Shown here piece by piece: positions 2,990-59,397 of a stretch of 64,000 bases of DNA (position 1 is the stretch's first letter; the number at the start of each line of letters is the position of its first letter). Where the stretch lies: the sequence record KT184313.1. One strand, written 5' to 3'. The translations under genes and the position numbers were made by a program. The notes below the pieces were generated by a model. The model saw only the letters and a list, made by a program, of their open reading frames with translations, was not told the DNA's origin and made no database searches. Source of the stretch: Enterobacteria phage KhF1.

Positions 2990-3182
2990 TAGCACCTCTT
3001 CGTTGTAGTTCTTCCTTCAATCCATTTTCAATCTTGTCCAGTTCATGAATTTCATCTGCAATCTCTTTCCTTCGTGATTCAACTCTCTTAAGACGTTCAA
3101 TCATTACCTCATTGGAAAGAGATGAGAGTTCCACTAAACGGTGGTCAATAACTTTAAAATTGTCTTTTACTCTCATCTTCAT
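2982..3182 (-). CDS. hypothetical small coiled-coil protein
   Basis: ORF track; charged, helical-looking sequence; compact operon spacing. Confidence 0.4.
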   Translation of the reverse strand: MKMRVKDNFKVIDHRLVELSSLSNEVMIERLKRVESRRKEIADEIHELDKIENGLKEELQRRGANV

Positions 3183-3190
3183 TCTCTCTT

Positions 3191-3934
3191 TTAAACTTTA
3201 ATGATGGCTCTTAGCTTGTTCTCAAGGTCTGCAAGAGTACCATTATTATGAATAATGTCACGCTCATATTTTGTAGAAATCCCATTTTCTGAAACATGTG
3301 ATGAAACTTTGTCCACATTGTCTCTTTTTACTTCAATAGTTTGGTGTGCAAATCTACTCAGCCATTCAGCTTCAGAGTCAAATCTTAAATCACTGATTAA
3401 GACAAAACCATATTGGTTTCTAAGTGAGCACATTTCATGGAATCTAACCATTCTTTTTTCAAGGTCTTTAGACCAGAACTTGTCGCCCATTACTTTACGG
3501 ACAACTTCAGTACCCCAAACCTGTTGAATTTGTCTTGATGAGAATTTATACTTTTTACTAAACCCCAGACGTGTTAATAGGGTAGGTTTAGCAACCTTCT
3601 TAAGTTCCATGATTAAGCGTCCTGTCAATTCTGACATAAGTTTAAAGTCCATATGGTAACGTTCATCTCTGAAGGTGAACTCCATAGCTTCCGTAACTTT
3701 AAACATCAGTTCAGAGTATGATAAGTCAAAAACCTGTGGAGTCTCTTTAGTTTCACCGTACAGGTCATTCCAAGTCAAGTCAAATATCTTTGATGCAGAT
3801 AGTTTAAGGTTGTCTGCAAAGGCCATTACAGCAACATTGTAGCCATACTCATCCTCTAAGATGTTCTTCACAATAGAACATGAGGTGTCTTTTCCAGAAC
3901 GTGCCTTTCCAGTAAATGCGATAATATTACTCAT
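3191..3934 (-). CDS. P-loop kinase, putative deoxynucleoside monophosphate kinase
   Basis: N-terminal Walker A AFTGKARSGKDT; strong SD AAGGGAGA before ATG; location in nucleotide-metabolism context. Confidence 0.55.
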   Translation of the reverse strand: MSNIIAFTGKARSGKDTSCSIVKNILEDEYGYNVAVMAFADNLKLSASKIFDLTWNDLYGETKETPQVFDLSYSELMFKVTEAMEFTFRDERYHMDFKLMSELTGRLIMELKKVAKPTLLTRLGFSKKYKFSSRQIQQVWGTEVVRKVMGDKFWSKDLEKRMVRFHEMCSLRNQYGFVLISDLRFDSEAEWLSRFAHQTIEVKRDNVDKVSSHVSENGISTKYERDIIHNNGTLADLENKLRAIIKV

Positions 3935-3995
3935 TTTATCTCCCTTAATTACTAAAAAGCCCCCAACTAAGGAGGCTTGTAAGATTTATAAAGAC

Positions 3996-4796
3996 TTAGT
4001 GCAGTTGCTCAGCAGACTCTTTTTCAGCCATAGCTGAGATTTGCTTCACAAAATCATCACCGAAGTTAATGCGTAGTTTCTCTTCAATGATTGAAGCACC
4101 AATATTCACCAAAACATCATTGATTGCTTGCATACTAACGCCACCAGTCATTTCCTCAATGAACTCAATACTCACACCCATCATCTGTGACAGTTGGATT
4201 AGTGCAACGATATTCATCATCGTAGAGATAGCTGGAATCATCAGTGCAACTTTCACCTGAAGTGGTTCAATGTCAGCTACAGAGTCATTTTCAACAGCTT
4301 CTTCCAAAGACTCTTTAGTTTGCTGGATAATCTCTTTGATTCGTGGGTTTAATTCTTCTACGCCCCAATCAAGTTTTTCATATCGTGAAAGTTTCTCTTC
4401 CATACGCTTCTCAAGAACAGCCATAACAGCACTCGTTGATGAGATAAGCGTATCAATAATGAAATCAGTGTCCTTAGTCAGCAACAGTTCCTTATCTTCG
4501 TCTGACATCCTGATATAGTCATTCTTTTGCATTTCATAAAAAATGAACTCAGCAAGTGCATCAACACCAACCGCAATAGATGCCAGAGCAAGTGTAGTGT
4601 CTGTTAACATCATGTTGACCTGTTCTGCAAAAGCACCGTTATCAGACTTGTCTTCAGGCAAGTTATAGCTTGCAGGCATAAACTGTTCTGTGTAGTTGTT
4701 ACCACGAAGAATCATAGCCATGCTTTCTACGGCATTGATTAAAAATGCTTCGTCAATACCTTTTTCTTCAAGCATCTTTTCTACATCGGTATTCAT
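3996..4796 (-). CDS. hypothetical acidic protein
   Basis: ORF track, 266 aa, Asp/Glu-rich; rho-independent terminator downstream. Confidence 0.5.
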   Translation of the reverse strand: MNTDVEKMLEEKGIDEAFLINAVESMAMILRGNNYTEQFMPASYNLPEDKSDNGAFAEQVNMMLTDTTLALASIAVGVDALAEFIFYEMQKNDYIRMSDEDKELLLTKDTDFIIDTLISSTSAVMAVLEKRMEEKLSRYEKLDWGVEELNPRIKEIIQQTKESLEEAVENDSVADIEPLQVKVALMIPAISTMMNIVALIQLSQMMGVSIEFIEEMTGGVSMQAINDVLVNIGASIIEEKLRINFGDDFVKQISAMAEKESAEQLH

Positions 4797-4797
4797 A

Positions 4798-5220
4798 TTA
4801 TTTCTCTCTCAGTTGGTTAAGTTTCTTTCTAGAACATTTTAAGTTTTCGGATGAAGAAAAGTCAAGTGTCTTTTCAGAACGTGGATAATAGTGTCTATCC
4901 CAAGAAGTTTCAACATCGTTAATCAGTGACGCTAGATTACACAGGTCTGTACCACTTTGCAATCTCTTTTTAAGAGAATCTAGTAAAGCAACTGTGTCTT
5001 TAGCTTTACGTCTCGCTGTAGCAACATCTTTCATATGCTCAAATACAGAGCATTTTAAGTCATCTTCATAGTTTTCAGACAACTCTATTTCATGTTGTAT
5101 ATCAACCATTCTCCTGTGATGGTGAGCATATTCCCGTTGAGCAGCAATGTCAAGTTCTTCCAACTTCTGCAAAGCTCTAACAAAGTCAGCTATGTCTGGG
5201 TGAACAAACATTTTCTGCAT
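4798..5220 (-). CDS. hypothetical protein
   Basis: ORF track, 140 aa; first gene of minus-strand operon diverging from the polymerase gene. Confidence 0.5.
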   Translation of the reverse strand: MQKMFVHPDIADFVRALQKLEELDIAAQREYAHHHRRMVDIQHEIELSENYEDDLKCSVFEHMKDVATARRKAKDTVALLDSLKKRLQSGTDLCNLASLINDVETSWDRHYYPRSEKTLDFSSSENLKCSRKKLNQLREK

Positions 5221-5477: not shown

Positions 5478-8177
5478 ATGGAAAACGTAGATTTTAAAAA
5501 CTTACATTTAGTTGGTGATACAGAAACTGATGGTTTACTCCTTGAGTTCACTAAAGTGCACGTAATGGCCTTTGCAGACTATAAATCTGACGATGAAGAG
5601 CCACCTGTATGGGTCTTTACAGATGAACCTATTCTCGGTCACAAGTACACCAAGTACATCAAGGGTGGCTTACGTGAAGGTATTGAGTTTGCGTTAAAGG
5701 CAAAACGTCTTTGCATCCATAATGGTCTCGGTTATGACTGGTGGGTTTTCAATCACATTGCACCTGATTTATGGAACTTTGATAATCCAAAGTGTAAACC
5801 GTGGAGTAATTTCTTTCAGGATTCTCTTATCCAGTCTCGTGTTCAGTGGATGGATAGACCAACTCCAAAGGGTTATAAAGGTGCTCATGGTTTGGCTGCA
5901 TGGGGTGCTCGTGTTGGTGTTCGTAAACCAGAGATTGAACACTGGGGTGTGTGGAATGCAGAAATCTTCACTCGTGTTGTAGAAGATATCCGTATTAACG
6001 CCAAAACTAAACGGGCACTTGATAACGAGTATCTCAAGCTTAAGAAGTGTGGCATAGACACTTATGAAACTTACATGAGAGCTAAAGAGACATCTTTCTG
6101 GATGAGCCAACAAGCTATCAATGGTTGGAAAGCTGATAAAGAGCTTATGGAGTTTCATGTAAAGGAACTTGACAAGTTGACTAATGAGCTTGCTTCAGAG
6201 GTTGAACCACATCTACCTCCAACTATTAAGACCAAAGGTAAAGTCACTGGAGAAGAGTTTGCAAAAGCTTGGAATGAGTATGTTGAAGCATTTGGTCATG
6301 CAGATGGACTGAAAAGAATTACCAAGTACCCTAAGACGAAGTATCGTCAGCAGGTTCGTAATGGTGAGATGCAGACTTACGCTATCAAACCTTTTGGTAA
6401 ACCAACTACCAAGATTTTCAACATTGAGAAGCGGAACTGCTACACTCCAACTAACACAGTTACTGGAGAAGAGTACAAAGAAGGCTTTGTAGCAATGAAG
6501 GATGCTCGTGCAATTTGCAATGAGTTGAATGCAAAGATTGGTAAGAAATGCAAAGACTGGAAGCCAGTAAAAACAGTCAAAACTGTGAAGTACTATAACA
6601 GCCACGTTGTTAACCACTTTGAACTTGAGTCAAGTCGCTACACAGGATTGATTGATGCACCATATACACCAATTGAGTTTGAAGTTTCTCGTATGACTCA
6701 GGTAGCAGTTGTAAAAGACTACTTGAAATCAGTTGGTTGGATTCCAGATGACTGGAACTACAAGAAAGACTCAGACGGTCGCCCTGTCAAAGTTTGTCGT
6801 TTCAAAGACAATAAAAAGATGATTACAAAACATCCTAAGTGGCAGGAGATGGTAGAACGGTGTGGATTGAGTTATGTCGAGCATGAAGGCGTCCAGTACA
6901 TCGAGCATAACTGGTCTGTGAAGAAGTACACAGATTTGCTTGAACCTTGCTTAATCCGTACTTCACCAAAACTTACGGAATCATCTTATGATACGATTGA
7001 AGGTGAGCTTGGACAGAAGATTGCTAAGTACTATACTTTGATGCACAGACGCAGAACTATTGAGAACTCAAAGGATGATGAAAAAGGTTGGTTGAACCAG
7101 ATTCGTCCTGATGGTCGCCTTAGTGCTGGCGCAATGGTGTTTGGTACTTCAACTGGACGTATGACACAATATGGTATTGTAAACGTACCGTCTGGTGCTG
7201 CTGTCTATGGGGAACCAATGAGGGCAGTGTGGATTTGTGAGGAAGGTACTAACGTTGTCTCTGTAGATATGAACTCAGCCCAGCTAGTTCTTCTTTGTAA
7301 CTTTATGGGTGATAAAGAGTTCACCAAAGCGGTAACGCAAGGTAAAGAAGAGATTGAGTTTATTCGTCAAGAAGATGGACGCTATTACTGCAAACATTTT
7401 GATGAGTACCTCAACCCAGAGATTGATAAGTACCTTCGCTATGACTCTGAGAATGACCTGTACGTTGTCTATTCAGGGACTGATGCACATACACTGAACA
7501 GTATTTACTTTAGCTTGAATGATGAGCAGGACATCTTGACTTGTCGAGCTACTCAGGATGAGAATCTTCTTCATGAGATTAGTAAAGGTCGTAAGAAAGC
7601 TAAGAATGGTATCTATGCACTGCTGTTCGGTGCAGGGGATGAGAAGTTTGCTAAGACGATTAAAGCTGCAACTACTCAGGAAGGTGCACTGACTAAACAA
7701 ACTTACTTTATTCGTTTGCCTAAAATTAAGAAGCTACTAGATGACTTGGAAGCTGACTACAAAGCAACTAAAAAGGCACTTGAAGAGGTGTTTGGTAAGA
7801 CTGCTGCAATCTCTAAAGGGGGTTTTGTAAAGGTTGCTGGAGCTTGGTTGTGGTGTAAATCTCCACACAAACTGTTGAACTACCTTTTGATGGGTTCAGA
7901 GGCCCAGATTCAAAATGAGGCAATTAACCTTGCTTGTCGTCGCATGATTGACGAAGGGTTGATGAAGCTAAATGGGCGTAAACCAGCTATAGGTGCTCGC
8001 TTATTGTGCGCATATCACGATGAGACTAGCTGGGAATGTCCAGAGAGTATGACGGCAGAAGTAAAAGCAGTTACTGATTGGTATTACGGGCAAGCTTCTA
8101 AGAACTTAGGTCTTAAGAAAGAAACACTTGTAACTGGTACAGGTAAGGTTGGAAAGAGTTGGCTTGAGGTTCACTGA
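5478..8177 (+). CDS. DNA polymerase, family A, with 3'-5' exonuclease domain
   Basis: Exo motif VGDTETDGL; Pol A motif B RKKAKNGIYALLFGAG; motif C YHDE; start set to ATG at 5478 after GAGGGAG SD. Confidence 0.9.
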   Translation: MENVDFKNLHLVGDTETDGLLLEFTKVHVMAFADYKSDDEEPPVWVFTDEPILGHKYTKYIKGGLREGIEFALKAKRLCIHNGLGYDWWVFNHIAPDLWNFDNPKCKPWSNFFQDSLIQSRVQWMDRPTPKGYKGAHGLAAWGARVGVRKPEIEHWGVWNAEIFTRVVEDIRINAKTKRALDNEYLKLKKCGIDTYETYMRAKETSFWMSQQAINGWKADKELMEFHVKELDKLTNELASEVEPHLPPTIKTKGKVTGEEFAKAWNEYVEAFGHADGLKRITKYPKTKYRQQVRNGEMQTYAIKPFGKPTTKIFNIEKRNCYTPTNTVTGEEYKEGFVAMKDARAICNELNAKIGKKCKDWKPVKTVKTVKYYNSHVVNHFELESSRYTGLIDAPYTPIEFEVSRMTQVAVVKDYLKSVGWIPDDWNYKKDSDGRPVKVCRFKDNKKMITKHPKWQEMVERCGLSYVEHEGVQYIEHNWSVKKYTDLLEPCLIRTSPKLTESSYDTIEGELGQKIAKYYTLMHRRRTIENSKDDEKGWLNQIRPDGRLSAGAMVFGTSTGRMTQYGIVNVPSGAAVYGEPMRAVWICEEGTNVVSVDMNSAQLVLLCNFMGDKEFTKAVTQGKEEIEFIRQEDGRYYCKHFDEYLNPEIDKYLRYDSENDLYVVYSGTDAHTLNSIYFSLNDEQDILTCRATQDENLLHEISKGRKKAKNGIYALLFGAGDEKFAKTIKAATTQEGALTKQTYFIRLPKIKKLLDDLEADYKATKKALEEVFGKTAAISKGGFVKVAGAWLWCKSPHKLLNYLLMGSEAQIQNEAINLACRRMIDEGLMKLNGRKPAIGARLLCAYHDETSWECPESMTAEVKAVTDWYYGQASKNLGLKKETLVTGTGKVGKSWLEVH

Positions 8178-40267: not shown

Positions 40268-40343
40268 TGGAGAATCCGAAGGGACTCGAACCCTTATAAA
40301 CCTGTTTTGCAGACAGGCACATAGCCATTTCTGTCACGGATTC
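40268..40343 (-). tRNA. tRNA-Cys (anticodon GCA)
   Basis: Acceptor GAATCCG/CGGATTC, T-arm AAGGG-TTCGAGT-CCCTT, anticodon loop CTGCAAA, CCA encoded. Confidence 0.7.
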
Positions 40344-40347
40344 AAAT

Positions 40348-40440
40348 TGGAGGAAGATACCAGACTTGAACTGGTACACCGATTTCTCAGCTACTGGCAG
40401 TTTAGCAAACTGCTCCCTTACCTTTTAGGGTTAATCTTCC
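40348..40440 (-). tRNA. tRNA-Ser (anticodon GCT), long variable arm
   Basis: T-arm ACCAG-TTCAAGT-CTGGT, anticodon loop TTGCTAA, about 90 nt. Confidence 0.6.
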
Positions 40441-40441
40441 A

Positions 40442-41176
40442 TTATTTCTGTAATGCGTTCTTCATTTCTGGTGTTGCAATAGTGTCAATCACACCAGTTT
40501 TACAAGCATCATCAAACCAGTCTGGTAAGATACCTGCTAAGAACCCATTGATATTCGTTTTAAGGTACTCTGCAATAAGGGCAGCTTCTTCTTCAATCAT
40601 CTGCACAACTTCATCTGCATAAGCTGTAATCTTTGAGATACCTTCATTAATCTTACTGACAGCTTGGTTAGCTAAATCAGAAACAGTATCAAGACCCTTA
40701 TCAATAGCATCTTGTAAGTCACTTAACACACCATTAACACTATCTAGTGTACTGTTCATCATGTCAATAGCTTTTTGACCATACTCTGTAGCAACACCCA
40801 TAATACCACTGAATGGTGTACAACCAACTTGTTCTCCTGCTGCACCCATAACATTGGAGTATCCCTTTGCTACCTGCATACGTGATGAAAACTCATCAAT
40901 AGACTTTTGACCGTAGTCTGTTAGGGTCTTAGTAGTTGCTGTAGTGCTTGTAAGGCTTGTTGTAAAGCTGTTTAGAAGGACTGTTGTAAGTCCAGCAGCA
41001 ACAAGTTTCTCCTTCATTGTAGGGTCTGTTACAGAGCTAATAGAGCTTACAAGTGATGTAGAAGCAGCTACGGTTCCACCGAGAACTGCTGCACCAGTAA
41101 TAAGTGGGTTAGAGAACCCTTTACCGGTTTTTAAGAGATTAAAAATCTCCTTACCTTGTTCTGTCATCTCTTTCAT
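40442..41176 (-). CDS. hypothetical Ala/Thr/Ser-rich protein inside tRNA cluster
   Basis: ORF track; start moved to internal ATG at 41176 because the annotated start would overlap tRNA-Phe. Confidence 0.45.
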   Translation of the reverse strand: MKEMTEQGKEIFNLLKTGKGFSNPLITGAAVLGGTVAASTSLVSSISSVTDPTMKEKLVAAGLTTVLLNSFTTSLTSTTATTKTLTDYGQKSIDEFSSRMQVAKGYSNVMGAAGEQVGCTPFSGIMGVATEYGQKAIDMMNSTLDSVNGVLSDLQDAIDKGLDTVSDLANQAVSKINEGISKITAYADEVVQMIEEEAALIAEYLKTNINGFLAGILPDWFDDACKTGVIDTIATPEMKNALQK

Positions 41177-41192
41177 TAAGCACCTTTGAAAT

Positions 41193-41269
41193 TGGTAGTC
41201 CAGTGGGATTTGAACCCTCTTCTCATGTTTTTCAGACACGCGCTTTAACCATATAAGCTACTTGGACTA
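41193..41269 (-). tRNA. tRNA-Phe (anticodon GAA)
   Basis: Acceptor pairing, GGGTTCAAATCCC T-arm, anticodon loop CTGAAAA. Confidence 0.6.
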
Positions 41270-41274
41270 TAAAT

Positions 41275-41350
41275 TGGGGTGACCTACGGGATTTGAACCC
41301 GTATAGACCATGTTCACAGCATGGGTCATTACCATTTATGATAAGGCCAC
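41275..41350 (-). tRNA. tRNA-His (anticodon GTG)
   Basis: Acceptor GTGGCCT/AGGTCAC, anticodon stem CCATG/CATGG, loop CTGTGAA. Confidence 0.7.
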
Positions 41351-41381
41351 ATTTAAGGACTCTCGTAAGAATCCTTAGAAG

Positions 41382-41457
41382 TGGCAGCGGCATAAGGATT
41401 TGAACCTTAATAGGACAGCTTCAGAGACTGTTGCATTGCCAGTTATGCTATACCGCT
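41382..41457 (-). tRNA. tRNA-Gln (anticodon CTG)
   Basis: Acceptor AGCGGTA/TGCCGCT, T-loop TTCAAAT, anticodon loop CTCTGAA. Confidence 0.6.
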
Positions 41458-41462
41458 AAATT

Positions 41463-41534
41463 TGGTACTCCATATCGGATTCGAACCGATACATAACACA
41501 GATTTTAAGTCTGGCCTCTCTGCCAATTGGAGTA
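41463..41534 (-). tRNA. tRNA, short and atypical, isotype undetermined (anticodon possibly TAA)
   Basis: Acceptor ACTCCAA/TGGAGT, T-arm ATCGG-TTCGAAT-CCGAT; anticodon arm does not parse cleanly. Confidence 0.45.
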
Positions 41535-41543
41535 ATGGAGCAT

Positions 41544-41618
41544 TGGCGGGGGATGTTGGAATTGAACCAACTTCTTCGATTTCAAAGACCGAGGTTTTAA
41601 CCTTGTAAACTAATCCCC
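41544..41618 (-). tRNA. tRNA-Gln (anticodon TTG), tentative
   Basis: T-arm GTTGG-TTCAATT-CCAAC, anticodon loop CTTTGAA; acceptor pairing imperfect. Confidence 0.5.
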
Positions 41619-41627
41619 TTTAAATCT

Positions 41628-42185
41628 TTACTTTCTCAGTGGATGAATAAAGAATGCCAACATAACTCTTTCCCTTGAGAATGCTCTTTCTTCTGGGACA
41701 ACACTTTTTAGTTTCCATCCAATATAAATTCTCCAGTAAAACTGTTTACCAAAGACTTTAATTGATGGGATAAAGGCGAATAATCCCCAAGCATTACTGT
41801 TCCACATTAGGAGATAACCAGTCTGATTATCTTCAGGGTCAGAACTTACGTTGATATTACCTTTCCACTTAGTAACATCTTTTACATCTCTTCCTAATAC
41901 ATGGTAAGAGAAGTTATAAGCTTTGTTTCTCCAGAGCCATCCGACTCTTTGCATGTAGACGCCTAGTTTACCAATCCATCTAATATTAGCCCATCTTTTA
42001 ACGTGACCTTCATCACCATCAATTGGGTTGTCATATGTCTCCATCCATCTGAACCCGAAAGGTAAGTGTCCTTTCTTCTCACTGTAGAATGGAACTACAA
42101 AAGGTGCTAAGATAACTGCTAAGATTGCTGCAAATGGCTCTAACAAAGCTAAGAAAATCCATGAAACATATTTTAAGTATCTCAT
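41628..42185 (-). CDS. integral membrane protein
   Basis: N-terminal hydrophobic helices WIFLALLEPFAAILAVILAPFVVPF; Trp-rich. Confidence 0.5.
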   Translation of the reverse strand: MRYLKYVSWIFLALLEPFAAILAVILAPFVVPFYSEKKGHLPFGFRWMETYDNPIDGDEGHVKRWANIRWIGKLGVYMQRVGWLWRNKAYNFSYHVLGRDVKDVTKWKGNINVSSDPEDNQTGYLLMWNSNAWGLFAFIPSIKVFGKQFYWRIYIGWKLKSVVPEERAFSRERVMLAFFIHPLRK

Positions 42186-42424
42186 TGTCTAACCCTCGTA
42201 AGGAGGTAAGCATTATTATTTGTTTCTGAGCTTTCTGGTAACATTGTCTCAAAATTGACGCTTTTAAGTTGTCTTCCACCAAAGCAATGACCAATAAATC
42301 TTTCTACTTTTATTGGGTCGCATTCCCATCCGACTTTCAAGAAAATGTGGGTATCTATAGTGGGAACCCTTACAAACTCAATACTATTGGGATTTTCATG
42401 TTCAACGACGATTAATGTTTGCAT
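42182..42424 (-). CDS. hypothetical protein
   Basis: ORF track; ATGA overlap with downstream membrane-protein gene. Confidence 0.45.
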   Translation of the reverse strand: MQTLIVVEHENPNSIEFVRVPTIDTHIFLKVGWECDPIKVERFIGHCFGGRQLKSVNFETMLPESSETNNNAYLLTRVRQ

Positions 42425-42441
42425 AAATTCCTCTTGCTTAT

Positions 42442-42517
42442 CTGGCGCAGGATAAGGGATTCGAACCCCTATTAACAGCTTCGTAGACTGTTGCTCTATC
42501 CATTTGAACTAATCCTG
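42442..42517 (-). tRNA. tRNA-Arg (anticodon ACG)
   Basis: Acceptor GCAGGAT/ATCCTGC, T-arm GGGGTTCGAATCCC, anticodon loop CTACGAA. Confidence 0.7.
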
Positions 42518-42522
42518 CAAAA

Positions 42523-42600
42523 TTGGTGTTCCAAGACGGATTCGAACCGTCACTAGTACAAGGTTTGAGCTTGCATCCTCTGCCAATTGGGATACTGGAA
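42523..42600 (-). tRNA. tRNA with anticodon CAA (Leu-type anticodon on a short-variable-arm body)
   Basis: Acceptor GTTCCAG/TTGGAAC, T-arm GACGG-TTCGAAT-CCGTC, anticodon loop CTCAAAC. Confidence 0.5.
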
Positions 42601-42601
42601 C

Positions 42602-42677
42602 ATGGTACTCACTAAAGGACTTGAACCTTTTTCTTCATCTTGTAAGGGTGATGTTTTACCATATAAACTAAGCGAGT
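42602..42677 (-). tRNA. tRNA-Val (anticodon TAC)
   Basis: Acceptor TACTCGC/GTGAGTA, T-loop TTCAAGT, anticodon loop CTTACAA. Confidence 0.55.
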
Positions 42678-42681
42678 ATGA

Positions 42682-42768
42682 AAGAGGTCTGGAGTTGTGC
42701 CGCTAACTCAACTCCGTGGAATTTGTTACGGTCTTCAGTTGACTCAAAGCGGTCTTTCACTTGACCTC
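42682..42768 (-). ncRNA. tRNA-sized structured element, not a canonical tRNA
   Basis: 7-bp terminal pairing AGAGGTC/GACCTCT encloses a 7-bp hairpin GGAGTTG/CAACTCC; no TTCGA T-loop. Confidence 0.35.
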
Positions 42769-42772
42769 TGAA

Positions 42773-42848
42773 TTGGTGCTCCCACAAGGATTCGAACCCT
42801 GATAAGTTGCTTACAAGGCAACCGTAATAGCCAATTATACGATAGGAG
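42773..42848 (-). tRNA. tRNA-Thr (anticodon TGT)
   Basis: Acceptor GCTCCTA/TGGGAGC, anticodon stem GTTGC/GCAAC, loop CTTGTAA. Confidence 0.7.
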
Positions 42849-42855
42849 CATTAAT

Positions 42856-42931
42856 TTGGAGCATCCAGAGGGAATCGAACCCTCAACCTCAGTTTGGAAG
42901 ACTGTAATTTTCCCGTTTAAACTATGGATGC
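42856..42931 (-). tRNA. tRNA-Gly (anticodon TCC)
   Basis: Acceptor GCATCCA/TGGATGC, T-loop TTCGATT, anticodon loop CTTCCAA. Confidence 0.65.
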
Positions 42932-42936
42932 ACTAA

Positions 42937-43012
42937 TTGGTGGAGTCACTGAGAATTGAACTCAGTTCCCAAGTTTGCAAAACTCGAATTTTAACCATAT
43001 AAACTATGACCC
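42937..43012 (-). tRNA. tRNA-Ala (anticodon TGC)
   Basis: Acceptor GGGGTCA/TGACTCC (G3-T70 wobble), anticodon loop TTTGCAA. Confidence 0.65.
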
Positions 43013-43018
43013 CAATGT

Positions 43019-43095
43019 TTGGTACAGGTGGAGGGAATTGAACCCATCGTCTTACTGATTAAGAGTCAGCCGCATAACCATTTTGCTACACCTGC
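43019..43095 (-). tRNA. tRNA-Lys (anticodon CTT)
   Basis: Acceptor GCAGGTG/CACCTGT, anticodon stem GCTGA/TCAGT, loop CTCTTAA. Confidence 0.55.
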
Positions 43096-43101
43096 ATTAA
43101 T

Positions 43102-43180
43102 TTGGTGGGAGACAAGGGATTCGAACCCTCAAACACCAACTTCTAAGGATGGTAGGTTTACCAATTACCGTCAATCTCCC
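43102..43180 (-). tRNA. tRNA with anticodon TAG (Leu-type anticodon on a short-variable-arm body), tentative
   Basis: Acceptor GGGAGAT/GTCTCCC, T-arm GAGGG-TTCGAAT-CCCTT, anticodon loop CTTAGAA. Confidence 0.45.
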
Positions 43181-43438
43181 ATTAAATCTTTTTAGAGAAC
43201 TTCTAAGAACCTAAGCAACAAGGTTCCACAACAAGCTGTAATAACCTTAGAAGCCCTCTAAAAAGACCTAAAAAGGTCTTTGCATAGTCTTGTTTAATCC
43301 GGTGACTAGAACCTTTGGAGAGCTTGATATTATCTCTTCTCCGTGACACCTACTAGGTGCTTTACTGTGCGTGTACGACAATACACGAGGGATACCAAAG
43401 CAACATCCGAATGAAGCTTGGCTTTAAAATCTTATTAG

Positions 43439-43526
43439 GCGGTAAGTAAAGGAGTCGAACCCTCACCGTATCTCTACAGTGGCAACAGTTTTCAAGACTG
43501 TTTGGCTGCCATTAGCCGCTACCTAC
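43439..43526 (-). tRNA. tRNA-Ser (anticodon TGA), long variable arm
   Basis: Acceptor GGTAGGT/ACTTACC, anticodon stem ACAGT/ACTGT, loop CTTGAAA, about 88 nt. Confidence 0.6.
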
Positions 43527-43539
43527 CCCTAATAAGACT

Positions 43540-43622
43540 TTGGCATGGGACGGAGGAGTTGAACCCCTTTGAAACGGTTTTGGAGGCCGTTGCTCATGCC
43601 TTAGAGTCTTAACATCGTCCCA
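43540..43622 (-). tRNA. tRNA, atypical; possibly tRNA-Trp (anticodon CCA) with extended D region
   Basis: Acceptor GTGGGAC/GTCCCAT, T-loop TTCAACT, candidate anticodon loop CTCCAAA; about 8 extra nt in D region. Confidence 0.45.
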
Positions 43623-43774
43623 CACTATAATTCGAAGCTTACCCTATTATCTCAACACTGTAAAGCCCCTTCTCAGATTATTTACATGTTCTGGAAAACA
43701 TGAGATACAGACCACCTCCCTACAGGAAGACCCGCTTAGGTCGTATAAGTAATCTGCTAACTATTTGGCACACC

Positions 43775-43842
43775 CTACAGGATTCGAACCTGTAACTAAC
43801 GATTTAGAAGACCGTTGCTCTATCCAATTGAACTAAGGGTGC
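43775..43842 (-). tRNA. tRNA-Arg (anticodon TCT)
   Basis: Acceptor GCACCCT/AGGGTGT, T-arm ACAGG-TTCGAAT-CCTGT, anticodon loop CTTCTAA. Confidence 0.65.
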
Positions 43843-44088
43843 ATTAATCTTTAAAGACTCTCTTAGAAAGCCCTTAAAGATGCCCACCTTATTAATCATA
43901 CCGTGGGCGAGTACGCCAAATTCTTTGATGAGGGATTGGAAGACCTCACTGGTGTTTAGCCTATCAAGCTACTGCCAGAAAAACATTGTCGTTTGCATTT
44001 ATTTTAAATTTGCAAAATAGACGCTACGCAACGAAAACTAAGGTTACTATAAAGTGGTCACATCTCAATGTCAACAACTTTATTGAAA

Positions 44089-44164
44089 TTGGTACTGGTA
44101 GGTGGAATCGAACCACCGATGTTCCCTTATCAGGGGAGTGTTATAACCTTCTTAACTATACCAG
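44089..44164 (-). tRNA. tRNA-Ile (anticodon GAT)
   Basis: Acceptor GCTGGTA/TACCAGT, T-arm GGTGG-TTCGATT-CCACC, anticodon loop CTGATAA. Confidence 0.7.
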
Positions 44165-44165
44165 C

Positions 44166-44243
44166 TTGGAGGTTCAGATGGGAATCGAACCCACATTCAT
44201 AGGGCTTATGAGACCCTTGCATTACCTTATCTGCGACTGAACC
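44166..44243 (-). tRNA. tRNA-Met (anticodon CAT), copy 1
   Basis: Acceptor GGTTCAG/CTGAACC, anticodon stem AGGGT/GCCCT, loop CTCATAA. Confidence 0.65.
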
Positions 44244-44246
44244 ATT

Positions 44247-44322
44247 TTGGTAGAAGTGGAGGGATTCGAACCCATCGCCTGTCAGATTAAAAGTCTGCCG
44301 CATCACCATTCTGCTACACTTC
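44247..44322 (-). tRNA. tRNA-Lys (anticodon TTT)
   Basis: Acceptor GGAAGTG/CACTTCT, T-loop TTCGAAT, anticodon loop CTTTTAA. Confidence 0.6.
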
Positions 44323-44325
44323 CAT

Positions 44326-44469
44326 TAAATTATCTTTGTAGATAAGCTACCCAGACTTGCTTAAGGTCTGTAGCGATGTGCCTTGTTGGGTTTAAATCTA
44401 GAATTTACCCTTTCACCCTTTGTGGTCGCATACTCACAGGTAAGCTTAATAACTTATCTACAAAGATAA
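44326..44469. repeat. 19-bp perfect inverted repeat pair (AATTATCTTTGTAGATAAG) enclosing about 106 nt
   Basis: Arms at about 44326-44344 and 44451-44469 are exact reverse complements. Confidence 0.6.
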
Positions 44470-44470
44470 T

Positions 44471-44602
44471 TACCAGACCGTTGTTTATCATCTTAAGTGC
44501 TACCATTACACCAACTCGACATCTGCCGAGTGAAGGAATCGAACCTTCGCCTTTTCTTTACCGAGAAATAGATTGTTTAAGTTTTGCTGTAAACGGTCTT
44601 CT
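44471..44602 (-). ncRNA. tRNA-like domain in permuted (Y RNA-like / YrlA-like) arrangement inside a long closing stem
   Basis: On minus strand: T-arm GAAGG-TTCGATT-CCTTC, acceptor-like 7-bp helix ACTCGGC/GTCGAGT capped by a 4-nt loop, D-arm GTGT-AATGGTA-GCAC, CTTAA/TTAAG helix, outer stem AGACCGTT/AACGGTCT. Confidence 0.45.
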
Positions 44603-44615
44603 GTAAATTTGTTGA

Positions 44616-44691
44616 GCCAGACCAAGTTTTAAATTTTTCAAAATTAAATTGGCTTGAAATTTTCATACGTTCTTGCTGTATTTGGTCTTCT
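44616..44691 (-). repeat. spacer hairpin element, family member 2 (CCAGACCAA ... TTGGTCTTCTG)
   Basis: Same conserved arms and TTGCTGTA block as 44471..44602 but AT-rich interior. Confidence 0.5.
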
Positions 44692-44752
44692 GCTCCTTTA
44701 AAGGATACTCGTAAGAACCCTTTAAGGGAGGGGCTAAATAGCCCTCTCAAAA

Positions 44753-44829
44753 TTGGCGGCTACGATGAGACTTGAACTCACATCATCTCCCGTGACAGGG
44801 GAGTATTTTCTCCAGTTAAACTACATAGC
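44753..44829 (-). tRNA. tRNA-Asp (anticodon GTC)
   Basis: Acceptor GGCTATG/CGTAGCC, T-loop TTCAAGT, anticodon stem CTCCC/GGGAG, loop CTGTCAC. Confidence 0.7.
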
Positions 44830-44834
44830 CTTTA

Positions 44835-44922
44835 TTGGTGTGCCGTGTAGGAGTCGAACCTACCGAGTCTCAATGACAAGGGATTTACAGTCCCCACCGC
44901 TACCATCTACGGGATAACGACA
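44835..44922 (-). tRNA. tRNA-Tyr (anticodon GTA), long variable arm
   Basis: Acceptor GTGTCGT/ACGGCAC, T-arm GTAGG-TTCGACT-CCTAC, anticodon loop CTGTAAA. Confidence 0.65.
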
Positions 44923-44930
44923 CATTTAAT

Positions 44931-45007
44931 TTGGCGGTTAGTCAGGGATTCGAACCCTGTGCCATTCGCTTAACAGGCGACCGCACATACCTTATGTGCT
45001 TCCTAAC
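44931..45007 (-). tRNA. tRNA-Asn (anticodon GTT)
   Basis: T-arm CAGGG-TTCGAAT-CCCTG, anticodon loop CTGTTAA. Confidence 0.65.
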
Positions 45008-45020
45008 CATGTTTAGTATT

Positions 45021-45085
45021 ACCAGACCGTATATTTCAATTTTTTCCGCTAAAAATTTAATAAATATTGCTGTAAACGGTCTTCT
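45021..45085 (-). repeat. spacer hairpin element, family member 3 (CCAGACCGT ... AACGGTCTTCTG)
   Basis: Conserved arms and TTGCTGTAAACGGTCTTCTGTAAA block. Confidence 0.5.
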
Positions 45086-45091
45086 GTAAAT

Positions 45092-45167
45092 TTGGAGGCG
45101 GGTGCAGGAGTCGAACCTGCCGATACCATGCTAATGAGACATGTGAGACGCCCTTTCTCTATACCCG
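45092..45167 (-). tRNA. tRNA with anticodon CAT, copy 2 (initiator, elongator Met or Ile2 undetermined)
   Basis: T-arm GCAGG-TTCGACT-CCTGC, anticodon stem CATGT/GCATG, loop CTCATTA. Confidence 0.6.
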
Positions 45168-45179
45168 CAATTCTTAATG

Positions 45180-45251
45180 ACCAGACCAAATATCTTCTTT
45201 GTCCGATTAACTTTCAGATGAGTAGATTAAGTTTGCTGTAATTGGTCTTCT
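45180..45251 (-). repeat. spacer hairpin element, family member 4 (CCAGACCAA ... TTGGTCTTCTG)
   Basis: Conserved arms and TTGCTGTAATTGGTCTTCTG block. Confidence 0.5.
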
Positions 45252-45258
45252 GTCAAAA

Positions 45259-45336
45259 CTGGCGTTCCAGAAGGGATTTGAACCCTCAAATATCCACTTT
45301 GAAAGAGTGGTGACTTTACCATTTTGTCTACTGGAA
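45259..45336 (-). tRNA. tRNA-Glu (anticodon TTC)
   Basis: Acceptor GTTCCAG/CTGGAAC, anticodon stem CCACT/AGTGG, loop CTTTCAA. Confidence 0.7.
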
Positions 45337-45343
45337 CATTAAT

Positions 45344-45423
45344 TTGGTCTCCGTTGAAGGATTTGAACCCTCGACCCCTTGCTCCCAAAGCAAGTGCTGC
45401 TAAACCAAACTGAGCTAAACGGA
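45344..45423 (-). tRNA. tRNA-Pro (anticodon TGG)
   Basis: Acceptor CTCCGTT/AACGGAG, anticodon stem CTTGC/GCAAG, loop TTTGGGA. Confidence 0.7.
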
Positions 45424-45542
45424 GATAAACTTTTCAAACTCTATGTAACCACTTTAACATTATTTTTTAGTGATTGTCAAGAACTTTTTTAAAATATTTT
45501 TCAGTATCTTAGAAAAGCTCTCATTTCGTTTCTATGTAGAAC

Positions 45543-45571
45543 ATATTAAAGGGTATTAAACACATTGTCAA
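45543..45571 (-). promoter_or_regulatory. sigma70-like promoter reading into the tRNA cluster (TTGACA, 17 nt, TAATAT)
   Basis: Reverse complement reads GGTA-TTGACA-atgtgtttaataccctt-TAATAT; sits inside inverted repeat GGGTATT...AATACCC. Confidence 0.6.
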
Positions 45572-45589
45572 TACCCTTTTTAAAACTTT

Positions 45590-47005
45590 TTACCAGATAT
45601 AACGGTCAATCATTACTGCTTTGAGCATTACACTGATTGGGTCAAACTTCTCACCACCAAGCAGAGCTTTTAAAGTGGCTGGAGAGAACCCTGATACCAT
45701 TGCTACACCGTTATCCTTAACAGATACTTCGCAAGTACCATTACGGTTTGCTAAGTACCAGAATACCAGTTGTGGCATCTCATATCCAGCTTTTTTGTAC
45801 TTACTCTGAATTGCTTCAAAGTTTGTACGTCCGTTAGCTCCATCAACCTGATTGAACTCCATATCGGAGAAGATGATAAGCTTACTTGGCATATCTTTCT
45901 GAGTCAAGTTGTTTCTTTTACCTGTTTCAAGAATGCGGTCAAAAGCTGCTTGTAAGTTAGTTGAGCCATATTCAACGTGTCGCATCACCTGACGATGACG
46001 GTTTCGTAAATCACCACTCAATTCGATGAAATGAGGGTTTGTTGAATAAACCATTAACTCGTTCTTAAAGCAACCTGTATTGCGTTCTGCTACATACAAG
46101 GCAAGGGATACACCAATATCAAGGGCAGTGATTGAACCAAGATTCACCCAAGACATTGAGCTTGAAACATCAGTCATACACAGGATGTTTTCACCTTCTG
46201 CCATCCAGTTTGGTAGTGCTTTCCACTGCTCATTAGCAACATCTGCATTACCATACTTGATAGATTTAATCACATCGTATGGATAAACAGCACCAGCATT
46301 AATCTTAGTCTCGCCCTTTGATAAGGACTCAATGTAAGATTTGTAGCGTTCTCCATCTTTACGGTTAAAGAGTTTTTGGTAACGTGCAGCAGCAAGTGAA
46401 GGAATCTTACTGTAGTCGATATTACCAAACTCATTAGCAGAGATTTTTTGTTCAACTGTATCAGATAGTGCAGACAGCAGTGTGCGGTACTCTTTCTCAC
46501 TCAAGTTTGCAAACTTGCAGAAACGTTTTACAAACTGTTTGTGACGTGGTTTTACTCGTGGTAACCACTTAGCTGCTAAACCTGCTGTTGCAGGGTCTAG
46601 TAATGCTGCTTCTAAATGTTTGAAGGCATCTGTCTCGAAACGAGTACCTACAAAGATTTTGAAGTCATCAAAGCGACCAAGCTCTGCAATCTTATCCATA
46701 ATGCGAAGAACCTGCGTAGGTTCTAAAACTTTATCTTCAATCGCTTGAAGTAAAACAGTTCGGAAAGCTTTACGCTCACCCATACCTTCTCGTACATCTC
46801 GCATATGCAGTAAAATACGAACTGCAACATCAACATCCTCATGCAAAGCTTTGTATAACAAGTCTGGTAAGATTTCTACATTGCTACGGCTGGAACCAGC
46901 AGCTTTGTAAAAGTCCACAAGAGCAGACATTGATGAAGTATGGTTTACAGCACCATTTTCAGTTCGACCTGCATGAAGGTGCGCATGTTTAAATAATTCG
47001 CTCAT
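45590..47005 (-). CDS. von Willebrand factor A (MIDAS) domain protein with N-terminal helical domain
   Basis: MIDAS-like DVSSSM (DxSxS) at about residue 275 and downstream IIFSDMEF; N-terminal 270 aa unassigned. Confidence 0.65.
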   Translation of the reverse strand: MSELFKHAHLHAGRTENGAVNHTSSMSALVDFYKAAGSSRSNVEILPDLLYKALHEDVDVAVRILLHMRDVREGMGERKAFRTVLLQAIEDKVLEPTQVLRIMDKIAELGRFDDFKIFVGTRFETDAFKHLEAALLDPATAGLAAKWLPRVKPRHKQFVKRFCKFANLSEKEYRTLLSALSDTVEQKISANEFGNIDYSKIPSLAAARYQKLFNRKDGERYKSYIESLSKGETKINAGAVYPYDVIKSIKYGNADVANEQWKALPNWMAEGENILCMTDVSSSMSWVNLGSITALDIGVSLALYVAERNTGCFKNELMVYSTNPHFIELSGDLRNRHRQVMRHVEYGSTNLQAAFDRILETGKRNNLTQKDMPSKLIIFSDMEFNQVDGANGRTNFEAIQSKYKKAGYEMPQLVFWYLANRNGTCEVSVKDNGVAMVSGFSPATLKALLGGEKFDPISVMLKAVMIDRYIW

Positions 47006-47086: not shown

Positions 47087-47458
47087 TTATTTTTTAAGAG
47101 TCGCTACAGCAGAGAACGTTGGTTTGTTATCTGTCTGAGGTTGACCACCGTTATCAGGGGTCTTCTTAGTGTCTGCTGCAATTGCTTTCATCTCACCTGC
47201 TGAGTGAGTCATGATAGTTTTACCAACTTCAATCATGCTCTTGATGGTTACGTCATCTGTGTTTAACCCGAACTCTGCAAGCTTAGCAGCATCCCTTGTA
47301 ACAATCGCTTCAAATAACTTTGCAGCAAACTCAGCAGAATTGTCAATGGTCAGTTGAGCTTTTACAAGTGAGCTTTTGTTGCGAGAGCCTTTTGGTCTTC
47401 CAGATGGGTTTCCAGATTGGCCTTTTTTAAACTGGCCTTTGTTTGTTCTGTTTTTCAT
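47087..47458 (-). CDS. small basic protein
   Basis: N-terminus GQFKKGQSGNPSGRPKGSRNKSS; first gene of minus operon that includes the vWA protein. Confidence 0.5.
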   Translation of the reverse strand: MKNRTNKGQFKKGQSGNPSGRPKGSRNKSSLVKAQLTIDNSAEFAAKLFEAIVTRDAAKLAEFGLNTDDVTIKSMIEVGKTIMTHSAGEMKAIAADTKKTPDNGGQPQTDNKPTFSAVATLKK

Positions 47459-58554: not shown

Positions 58555-58788
58555 CTAGTCTTTTTCAATGATAATTTCATATTGACCATCGACACTGTCA
58601 AAATAGACGCCGTCTTCATCTTCTGTCTTAAAGTAGCATTGAATATCATCACTGGCGGGATAGTCTTGTCTTGCTATCTGGCAAACTTGAATAGCATTTT
58701 CTTTACTCCCTGTAAACTCCTCAAGCCCTTTAAAATCACATGAATGACCATTACAAATAGAAAGGATAAGATAAACGGTTGTAAGCAT
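58555..58788 (-). CDS. small protein with N-terminal signal-peptide-like segment
   Basis: MLTTVYLILSICNG hydrophobic N-terminus; preceded by variant hairpin AGCCCCT-gtga-GGGGCT. Confidence 0.5.
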   Translation of the reverse strand: MLTTVYLILSICNGHSCDFKGLEEFTGSKENAIQVCQIARQDYPASDDIQCYFKTEDEDGVYFDSVDGQYEIIIEKD

Positions 58789-58854
58789 GATTTAAGCCTC
58801 CTAAAAGCCCCTGTGAGGGGCTAATCAGTGTTTATAAGGTGATTGCATAGGTTT

Positions 58855-59397
58855 TTAGAAAAAACCCTTTAAATCCTCTTCTGCGATGTTTTCTGTCAGT
58901 GTATCCATGATGTCACAAAAAACCTGAATACTGTCCGATTGTTGAACACTTTTAGCAAGTAGTTCTAATGTCTCATCAAGATAGTTCATATTTGGGTTAT
59001 CCAGTGAAGGAAGACAAAAAGGCGAATACATAGCGTTAAACTCTGTTGTATAGACCTTTTTAATCCAATTTATATCAAAATACTCTGTAAAACTTGCTAC
59101 ACTCGACATATTATCACAAGAATAATCGTCGTTTAGTTCAGCCTCTGGAATATCAAGTTCTAGGATAACAATATTTTGTGTCTTCATCTGGAAAGCTGCG
59201 GTGATAGTGGCATTGCCTAAAGCTTGCTGGATACCTTCAGAGATTATTTCTTCCTCATCGTCGCCATAGATTTTATTTTCTGGATACACGTAAAAATTGC
59301 CGTCCATATCCGAACAATTCCATGCGCCTGATGGTTTATCACCGTTATTAATCAGGTTGAGGAAATTTTCTTGAGTAGTTCCGTGATAGCATTTCAT
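58855..59397 (-). CDS. early-type hypothetical acidic protein
   Basis: Preceded by type B leader. Confidence 0.55.
   Translation of the reverse strand: MKCYHGTTQENFLNLINNGDKPSGAWNCSDMDGNFYVYPENKIYGDDEEEIISEGIQQALGNATITAAFQMKTQNIVILELDIPEAELNDDYSCDNMSSVASFTEYFDINWIKKVYTTEFNAMYSPFCLPSLDNPNMNYLDETLELLAKSVQQSDSIQVFCDIMDTLTENIAEEDLKGFF

Follow-up and report, generated by a model that had tools for sequence, protein, structure and literature searches.

A 64,000-nucleotide (nt) stretch of Enterobacteria phage KhF1 (KT184313.1), a Felix O1-type coliphage, is the DNA analysed here and is called the window throughout; at the start of its tRNA cluster lies a locus that is probably a phage ribonucleoprotein module of the Ro60/Y-RNA type, consisting of a protein with a predicted Ro60 fold and four small Y-like RNAs, Yl-1 to Yl-4. 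A Ro60-like ribonucleoprotein module embedded in the tRNA cluster had been suggested by a first-pass annotation of the sequence, and this suggestion is now supported by the fold of the protein, by the YrlA layout of the long RNA, and by the co-occurrence of gene and RNAs, from which we infer that the protein binds the RNAs. Yl-1, Yl-2, and Yl-3, which carry the same handle as Yl-4, were missed in the first pass. The RNAs are scored with two covariance models built by Infernal iteration, R1 from four Ounavirinae copies and R2 from 30 matches; MAFFT misaligned the 3' halves of distant RNAs and was replaced by a close-relative model followed by Infernal iteration. The components of the locus are:

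45590..47005, minus strand: gene for the 471-aa protein with predicted Ro60 fold, comprising an N-terminal helical-repeat ring (DUF2828) and, at the C-terminus, a vWA domain whose MIDAS is intact (DUF7788); ortholog of Bas63 gp130.
45179..45252, minus strand: Yl-1, short Y-like RNA (R1 37.4 bits, R2 41.2 bits; fold computed), filling the gap between tRNA-Glu and tRNA-Met almost exactly.
45020..45086, minus strand: Yl-2, short Y-like RNA (R1 46.5 bits, R2 43.2 bits; fold computed), filling the gap between tRNA-Met and tRNA-Asn almost exactly.
44615..44692, minus strand: Yl-3, short Y-like RNA with the handle only (R2 31.4 bits, E=0.0011), reading AGACCAA...TACAGCAAG...TTGGTCTGG; also present in Bas63.
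44471..44603, minus strand: Yl-4, long Y-like RNA with the handle and a circularly permuted tRNA-like domain (R1 145.7 bits, R2 110.5 bits; covariation).

The first pass had correctly described a 471-aa open reading frame (ORF) at 45590..47005, with a C-terminal DVSSSM MIDAS motif, about 1 kb from the long RNA and on its strand; Yl-4 starts 987 nt downstream of the gene stop (45590). The protein matches Pfam DUF2828 and DUF7788 as well as PHROG 850 (labelled 'RNA-binding protein'); the Pfam search proposed at the time finds DUF2828 but not TROVE, and an NCBIfam search returns nothing. The MIDAS motif corresponds to D279-S281-S283, and D279, S281, S283, T349, and D381 are invariant across 50 sequences. 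An AlphaFold2 model computed from a 50-sequence alignment (pLDDT 90.5, pTM 0.89; a single-sequence model with pLDDT 42 was discarded) consists of a HEAT-repeat ring plus a vWA domain, that is, the whole Ro60 fold. All ten Foldseek matches at E<1e-6 are Ro60/TROVE chains aligned over the full length (TM 0.49-0.66), and the matches that follow are weaker by four orders of magnitude. Given this gap, the modelled protein is a Ro60 by fold, not a TROVE member by sequence, and the structural comparison with Ro60/Rsr that had been put forward as a check comes out in favour of the proposal. In addition, Pfam vWA_Ro60 (PF25045) gives weak matches in 13 of the 50 homologs (best E=1.7e-4) and none for the window protein itself.

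The protein is 98% identical to gp130 of phage Bas63, which is reported to resemble Ro60 in structure, lies upstream of tRNAs, and has been found by experiment to counter the Ppl defence, Ppl resistance being lost when the protein is knocked out (2024 PhageMaP preprint, PMC11482910). The authors of the preprint guessed that some of the annotated tRNAs may be Y RNAs (PMC11482910). Bas63 carries the same four RNAs as the window, none of which is an annotated tRNA, the long one lying under the opposite-strand gene bas63_0137. The protein half of the present finding is thus already contained in the preprint and the RNA half appears to be new: no RNA motif, covariation, or wider distribution is described there (PMC11482910), none of the five papers found to mention DUF2828 in the literature searched deals with RNA or phages, and the four RNAs, their handle, and its distribution appear to be previously undescribed.

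The handle is the element common to all four RNAs. Each begins with CAGAAGACC and ends with GGTCTGG, and all have a common stem that is followed by UUACAGCAA; the handle can be defined as a covarying stem with UUACAGCAA next to it on the 5' strand and CUG after the 3' strand. Over 71 distinct aligned rows, the consensus reads A-G-N5-U-U-A-C-A-G-C-A-A...N5-C-U-G, in which hardly any variation is seen at the G:C pair, at the 3' G, and at U13, C15, G17, C18, and A19 (these five being invariant in 69-70 of the 71 rows), whereas the five variable stem pairs covary freely. The motif is not among the families of Rfam 15. Matches to R1 or R2 at E<=1 in the window are confined to the four RNAs beside the gene, among which only Yl-4 has a tRNA-like domain; Yl-1, Yl-2, and Yl-3 are handle-only.

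Yl-4 is built from the following parts:

44592..44599, minus strand: 5' strand of the closing stem, AGACCGTT, which pairs with 44475-44482 (AACGGTCT), then GG.
44584..44592, minus strand: single-stranded conserved motif TTACAGCAA, adjoining the 5' strand of the stem on its 3' side; proposed site of protein binding.
44532..44548, minus strand: T-arm GAAGG-TTCGATT-CCTTC (partial match to the Rfam tRNA model, model positions 43-63).
44514..44531, minus strand: acceptor-like 7-bp hairpin ACTCGGC-AGAT-GTCGAGT (direct reading; covariation).
44497..44511, minus strand: D-arm GTGT-AATGGTA-GCAC, preceded by U8-G9 (direct reading; covariation).

Read directly on the minus strand from 44603, the RNA opens with CAGA-AGACCGTT-TACAGCAA-AA-CTTAA-ACAATC-[TTTCT-CGGTAA-AGAAA]-AGGC, where TTTCT/AGAAA is the V hairpin, runs through the T-arm, the acceptor-like hairpin, TG, and the D-arm as listed, and closes, down to 44471, with TTAAG-ATGATAAAC-AACGGTCT-GGTA. 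U8, A14, G18-G19, and a UUCGAUU T-loop stand at tRNA-like places. Most of the anatomy given by the first-pass annotation therefore holds: the reversed order of T-arm and D-arm at 44471..44602 is confirmed by direct reading and by the minimum free energy (MFE) fold, the acceptor-like ACTCGGC/GTCGAGT helix is indeed closed by a 4-nt loop (AGAT), and the flanking arms do form an outer stem (44592-44599 with 44475-44482). The CTTAA/TTAAG helix placed at the anticodon position is present in KhF1, but in SUSP1, Sf13, and Moogle the 5' partner has changed and the other strand does not compensate. Although the MFE fold recovers all named helices, its z-score of -1.58 is not significant alone, and the case for Yl-4 hence rests on covariation.

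Common tRNA finders do not recognize this element. Neither ARAGORN nor the Rfam tRNA model at its gathering threshold calls Yl-4, the latter calling 24 tRNAs around but not on 44471-44603; with permissive settings, the Rfam model detects only the T-arm, as a partial match of 14.9 bits. ARAGORN does call a tRNA once the two halves are re-joined with an artificial anticodon loop between them. Yl-4 itself has no anticodon loop, its joined ends being the handle that is common to RNAs without tRNA parts, and ARAGORN makes no transfer-messenger RNA (tmRNA) call in the window. A strict pattern scan of both strands finds the layout nowhere else in the 64 kb, and a comparison of the tRNA-like domain with the 26 resident tRNAs found no close similarity.

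Matches to the region come from 273 phage records, and its identity to Felixounavirus genomes, among them wV8, REP6, LMP34, and numerous others, is 96-98%. Yl-4 is found in 252 Ounavirinae records, at least 95% identical in 210 of them, between tRNA-Asp and tRNA-Lys, and is always unannotated or mis-annotated. Between lineages, the acceptor-like hairpin changes on both strands, from ACTCGGC/GTCGAGT in KhF1 to ACACG/CGTGT in SUSP1 and Sf13 and ACCCTTC/GAAGGGT with loop GCCAAACA in Moogle. Among 30 related sequences, standard pairs occupy 98.9% of pair cells over four helices, compared with 33-45% when the partners are slid, and compensatory changes occur in 19 of 23 pairs (closing stem 6/7, T-stem 4/5, acceptor-like helix 7/7), values reached by 0 of 500 shuffles; because the alignments had been fitted to the model, these figures are inflated. 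A model-free scan for exact complements recovers the same stems, with different sequences in each lineage. Covariation of the fold in related phages, named as a check in the first pass, is thus supported.

Several records illustrate how the region has been annotated so far. In REP6 (OQ174505), a 131-nt 'tRNA-Thr (GGT)' is placed across the Yl-4 region, and in wV8 (NC_012749), the opposite-strand hypothetical protein gp48 covers the RNA region. In Bas63 (MZ501086), opposite-strand hypothetical proteins lie over the long RNA (bas63_0137) and over the counterpart of 44327-44470 (bas63_0138); the window counterpart of such calls is a 76-aa ORF at 44376-44606 on the plus strand. A Felix O1-type region of 98.5% identity also occurs at 58730-58930 of GU169904.1, 'Staphylococcus phage SA1', which looks like a mixed or mis-assembled record.

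Outside the Ounavirinae, the handle accompanies DUF2828 genes in many unrelated viruses. From 80 viral contigs encoding homologs (loci numbered with the prefix L), 65 are outside this subfamily, with a protein identity of 39-47%. R2 yields 112 matches at E<=1 on the viral contigs, 111 of which are on the gene strand. A motif-verified handle is present in 48 of the 65 loci; the distance from the gene to the nearest copy is at most 150 nt in 31 of them and at most 600 nt in 46, and up to 6 copies occur per locus. No tRNA is found within 6 kb in 45/65 loci, and in most of these the RNA is still beside the gene, so the RNA goes with the gene and not with the tRNAs; L024, L025, and L030 have the RNA and no tRNA genes at all. 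Where tRNAs do occur near DUF2828 genes, all 105 share the gene strand. Long forms with T-arm, acceptor hairpin, and D-arm are seen in L024, L027, L037, L044, L046, L052, L073, L080, L085, and L087. The arrangement in L087, a 148-kb phage whose protein is 48% identical, resembles that of the window, with the gene followed by five tandem Y-like units, two of them tRNA-like, inside a 26-tRNA cluster. Two strict-scan matches were rejected as chance, one on a tandem tRNA-Met/Ile of L053 and one in L071, where it lies on the opposite strand.

In about 8 of 20 long forms, including L018/L004 (Moogle), L024, L046, L073, and L085, the acceptor loop begins with NCCA, a discriminator base plus CCA (GCCA, ACCA, or CCCA), which would be expected by chance in about 1 in 64; the window copy (AGAT) lacks it. 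In Mycobacterium smegmatis, YrlA is cleaved by RNase P, exposing a CCA end (PMC4201824). By analogy, the relatives with NCCA at this place may likewise be cut by RNase P and expose a CCA end.

The handle is also joined to tRNA bodies in other ways. L046 holds two full-length Rfam tRNA matches (7895-8015 and 8025-8137; 56.9 and 40.9 bits), each having a perfect acceptor stem of 7 bp and an encoded CCA and neither being called by ARAGORN; in both, the anticodon loop is swapped for a 52-55-nt insert made of the handle as a local hairpin (CAAACT-GAN-AAGTTTG) plus TATTCAGCA, an arrangement that amounts to a circular permutation of the window design. At 8325-8431 of L073, a handle (AGGTTCC...TTTCAGCAAAAC...GGAACCTG) surrounds a canonical-order tRNA body with a 3-bp acceptor stem, a D-arm, an anticodon loop CUUUUAA (Lys UUU), and a T-arm, a third mode of joining handle and tRNA. 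ARAGORN further calls CUA-anticodon (amber-reading) tRNAs in L087 and L073. Upstream of the Ro60-like gene and tRNA cluster of L087, at 2055-4955, lie genes for a protein resembling phosphoribosyltransferase/PRPP synthetase and for a NAPRTase (NAD salvage).

Ro60 classically carries a Y RNA on its outer surface and takes misfolded RNA 3' ends into its central hole. By this model, the window protein would be a divergent Ro60, composed of a helical-repeat ring and a vWA/MIDAS domain, and the four small RNAs encoded downstream of it, on the gene strand and interleaved with tRNA genes, would be transcribed together with the tRNAs from promoter-like sites after the gene:

45543..45579, minus strand: hairpin with a sigma-70-like promoter, TTGACA-17-TAATAT, right after the gene stop (consensus scan only).
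45451-45480, minus strand: second promoter-like site (consensus scan only).

Judged from the sequence, these two sites are likely the starts of the tRNA/Y-like RNA transcript, although the number of promoter-like sites that the consensus scan finds is not above that in shuffles. The hairpins that follow the stop codon of the Ro60-like gene in the window (45548-45579, minus strand) and in L087 (9455-9505) are alike: the loop and 3' arm contain a TTGACA -35 box, and a -10-like box comes next. Both resemble the promoter-early stem-loops of T4-type phages. Release of the RNAs from the tRNA precursor would probably be a by-product of the maturation of the tRNAs on either side, through RNase P acting on the 3' neighbour and 3'-end processing of the 5' neighbour. 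All four RNAs have the handle in common, with 5'-AG-N5...N5-CUG-3' as terminal stem and unpaired UUACAGCAA next to it on the 5' strand, and this handle is the proposed binding site of the protein, by analogy with the terminal stem and CGAA loop through which Y RNAs bind Ro60. Yl-1, Yl-2, and Yl-3 would offer the handle only, and the permuted tRNA mimic of Yl-4 may recruit or decoy a tRNA-binding factor, for which a nuclease, a repair enzyme, and a modification enzyme are candidates.

The types of cargo seen on the handle are none, the permuted tRNA mimic of the window, the enclosed tRNA-Lys(UUU)-like body of L073, and the canonical tRNA of L046 with the handle in place of the anticodon loop. 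It is conceivable, and put forward here only tentatively, that the handle is a modular adaptor with which the divergent Ro60 ring displays varied tRNA-shaped cargos, and that widespread phages use the particle as a decoy or repair platform against host defences directed at tRNAs or nucleic acids. This idea, drawn purely from the anatomy of the RNAs, would give the counter-defence effect of Bas63 gp130 on Ppl a connection to RNA.

A number of results weigh against assigning the locus to the Ro60/Y-RNA type. Pfam TROVE (PF05731) has no match at E<=1 in the 471-aa protein and none at E<=10 in 50 homologs, and among PDB sequences, no Ro60 is found either by phmmer or by profile search. The search of the window RNA with the YrlA model, a check named in the first pass, failed to give a match to Rfam RF02553 at E<=10, and the matches in relatives (42.1, 38.2, 26.2, and 18.1 bits) are all below the gathering score of 69. 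The Ro60-binding motif on the 5' strand of YrlA is GNCGAAN0-1G (PMC4201824), which is not found on the 5' strand of the window RNA, where ACAGCAA (UUACAGCAA) stands; a GGCGAAG string does occur in the RNA, but in the T-stem junction, outside the handle. No RNA is detected by R2 plus motif in 17/65 loci, some of which have divergent candidates, and KVP40-like L022/L023 and T4-like L089 have no convincing RNA. The R2 E-values are, moreover, unreliable on tandem tRNAs: the only significant R2 match (E<0.01) in the T4 tRNA region is a false positive on tandem tRNA-Leu/tRNA-Gly (31.4 bits), because of which hits on tandem tRNAs were excluded and the motif was required. To these can be added the inflation of the covariation counts mentioned above. 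Finally, growth on Ppl is restored by gp130 alone, whether supplied from a plasmid or from T7 carrying the gene (PMC11482910), so that the Ppl phenotype is independent of the phage RNAs; these may instead regulate the protein or have a second function.

The alternatives to a Ro60/Y-RNA-type particle account for parts of these data. One is that the handle is a cis-acting part of the mRNA or precursor, either an autoregulatory operator in the 3' untranslated region or a punctuation for stabilization or processing, as might be expected from the position of the short form in most metagenomic loci, where it shares the strand of the gene and begins 22-60 nt past its stop codon, and from the exact filling of inter-tRNA gaps by the window elements. 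This is unlikely, however, with a promoter-like hairpin and two tRNAs between the window gene and the first element, a promoter-like site between the L087 gene and its array, RNAs upstream of the gene in some loci (e.g., L024, L027, and L080), and up to 6 copies per locus, some with elaborate tRNA-like cargo that is hard to reconcile with an operator. Adjacency to the gene does not separate the two explanations, because known Y RNAs are co-transcribed with rsr (PMC4201824). Alternatively, the elements may be processing or insulator signals of tRNA operons, such as RNase III/E sites, without a link to the Ro60-like protein. While their interleaving with tRNAs in the window and L087 and the shared strand of 105/105 tRNAs near DUF2828 genes agree with this, such signals are quite improbable in view of the 45/65 loci that are tRNA-free within 6 kb and mostly keep the RNA beside the gene, and of the lack of a handle in the T4 tRNA cluster and in the rest of the window cluster (40268-44323).

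Two further explanations concern Yl-4 specifically. Permuted tRNA genes that mature to tRNAs are known from the red alga Cyanidioschyzon merolae, and Yl-4, too, has the 3' half before the 5' half, is accepted by ARAGORN when its halves are re-permuted, and has relatives (about 8/20) with NCCA after the acceptor 3' strand. That it is a functional gene of this kind, circularized or re-cut to a normal tRNA, is nonetheless very improbable: the place of the anticodon loop is taken by the handle, which is common to RNAs without tRNA parts, the anticodon-like helix is not conserved, no bulge-helix-bulge splice site is seen, and no splicing endonuclease is known in the hosts of these phages. Equally, the location inside a tRNA cluster, the ability of tandem tRNAs to fool R2, and the 131-nt 'tRNA-Thr(GGT)' annotated in REP6 would be compatible with a decayed tRNA or with a chance junction between the T-arm of one tRNA and the D-arm of the next. 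This is contradicted by the covariation and can be given almost no credence: the acceptor strands form a helix whose pairs covary between lineages, conservation extends to the closing stem and the motif, 210/252 matching records are >=95% identical, no matching 5' or 3' half lies nearby, and there is no close similarity to the 26 resident tRNAs.

Beyond the Ro60-like gene and its four RNAs, the surroundings contain further features. The tRNA cluster spans 40268-45424, with 26 tRNAs called by ARAGORN, all on the minus strand. Between Yl-4 and tRNA-Lys lies another conserved structured RNA:

44327..44470, minus strand: conserved structured RNA (RNAalifold on 4 Ounavirinae sequences).

In the RNAalifold result, about 23 bp make up its closing helix (AATTATCTTTGTAGATAAG.../...CTTATCTACAAAGATAATT), 4 of them compensatory among the Ounavirinae, and within lies a hairpin that covaries as well (CAGAC/GTCTG in the window, CAAACC/GGTTTG in others) and whose loop, reading UUAAGCAA / UUUAGCAA, is reminiscent of the handle motif. 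Its membership in the module is uncertain. Three more tRNA-free gaps of about 240-260 nt are located inside the cluster (43181-43437, 43528-43765, and 43843-44089), in which an R2 scan finds no handle. The Rfam model tmRNA_permuted matches the stretch that follows tRNA-Ile in SUSP1 and Moogle, but below threshold (about 30 bits, gathering score 47). Directly upstream of the Ro60-like gene and on its strand, 47087-47458 (minus) encodes a 123-aa DUF5681 protein (PHROG 4114), which was considered as a third module component and rejected, as outside the Ounavirinae it does not accompany the gene.

Particles of Ro60 and Y RNA occur in organisms from bacteria to humans as a conserved assembly, whose protein, Ro60, is a major autoantigen. 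A candidate Ro60-type particle with four candidate RNAs in engineerable Felix O1-type coliphages, for which a knockout phenotype (Ppl) is already on hand, would provide an Escherichia coli phage system for studying such particles. The finding also links DUF2828 and DUF7788, Pfam domains of unknown function whose homologs comprise 2528 matches and at least 595 viral loci, to Ro60, defines an RNA motif new to Rfam 15, and would explain why the tRNA clusters of hundreds of sequenced phages show 'empty' gaps and small ORFs that are spurious.

The closest known counterpart of the window RNA is YrlA, in which a terminal stem between the 5' and 3' ends, a conserved 5'-strand motif, and an optional V hairpin are combined with a T-arm, an acceptor-like stem-loop, and a D-arm, in this order (PMC4201824). 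The first-pass assignment of this layout is borne out, since the order of elements in Yl-4 is the published one (PMC4201824) and relatives give full-length RF02553 matches, namely L087 9716-9831 (42.1 bits, E=6.7e-8) and L024 5770-5880 (38.2 bits, E=8e-5). In common with YrlA/Ro60 (PMC4201824, RF02553), the RNA has tRNA-like parts in the same order within a 5'/3' stem, a motif beside this stem, and an optional V hairpin, is encoded beside a ring-plus-vWA protein, and is one of several RNAs per locus, as are YrlA and YrlB. In the Rfam alignment of a relative, the YrlA consensus acggCgaAUGC, within which the GNCGAAN0-1G motif lies, falls on ACAGCAAAUAC, setting the handle motif against the YrlA GGCGAAUG, and the design is therefore the same as that of YrlA; on sequence, the handle motif may be a G-to-A variant of the YrlA motif. 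The differences are that the protein is of the DUF2828/DUF7788 type without a TROVE sequence match, that the motif is (U)UACAGCAA instead of GNCGAAN0-1G, that the RNAs lie inside a tRNA operon and not in an RNA-repair operon of the rtcBA type, and that relatives of the window RNA also join the handle to canonical-order tRNA bodies. A variant motif together with a divergent protein family would have the look of a co-evolving binding pair.

Ro60 and Y RNAs were known earlier from mycobacteriophages, CcrColossus, and Bacillus phage G (PMC4201824), as well as from Thermus phage phiLo (PMC12135203). The phiLo Ro60 with Yrl1/Yrl2 (PDB 9KOP, 9L5Y) differs from the window system in being a recognized TROVE protein and in having RNAs with the CGAA motif, for which no tRNA-like domain is reported and no tRNA cluster is described (PMC12135203). 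Permuted tRNA genes and two-piece tmRNA share with Yl-4 the position of the 3' tRNA half before the 5' half, whereas Yl-4 has no anticodon loop and no tag frame, and its ends form a protein-handle stem in place of a splice site. The stable RNAs C and D of T4 (rnaC and rnaD), which lack the handle motif and an R2 match, are small stable RNAs that, like the RNAs described here, are encoded inside a phage tRNA cluster.

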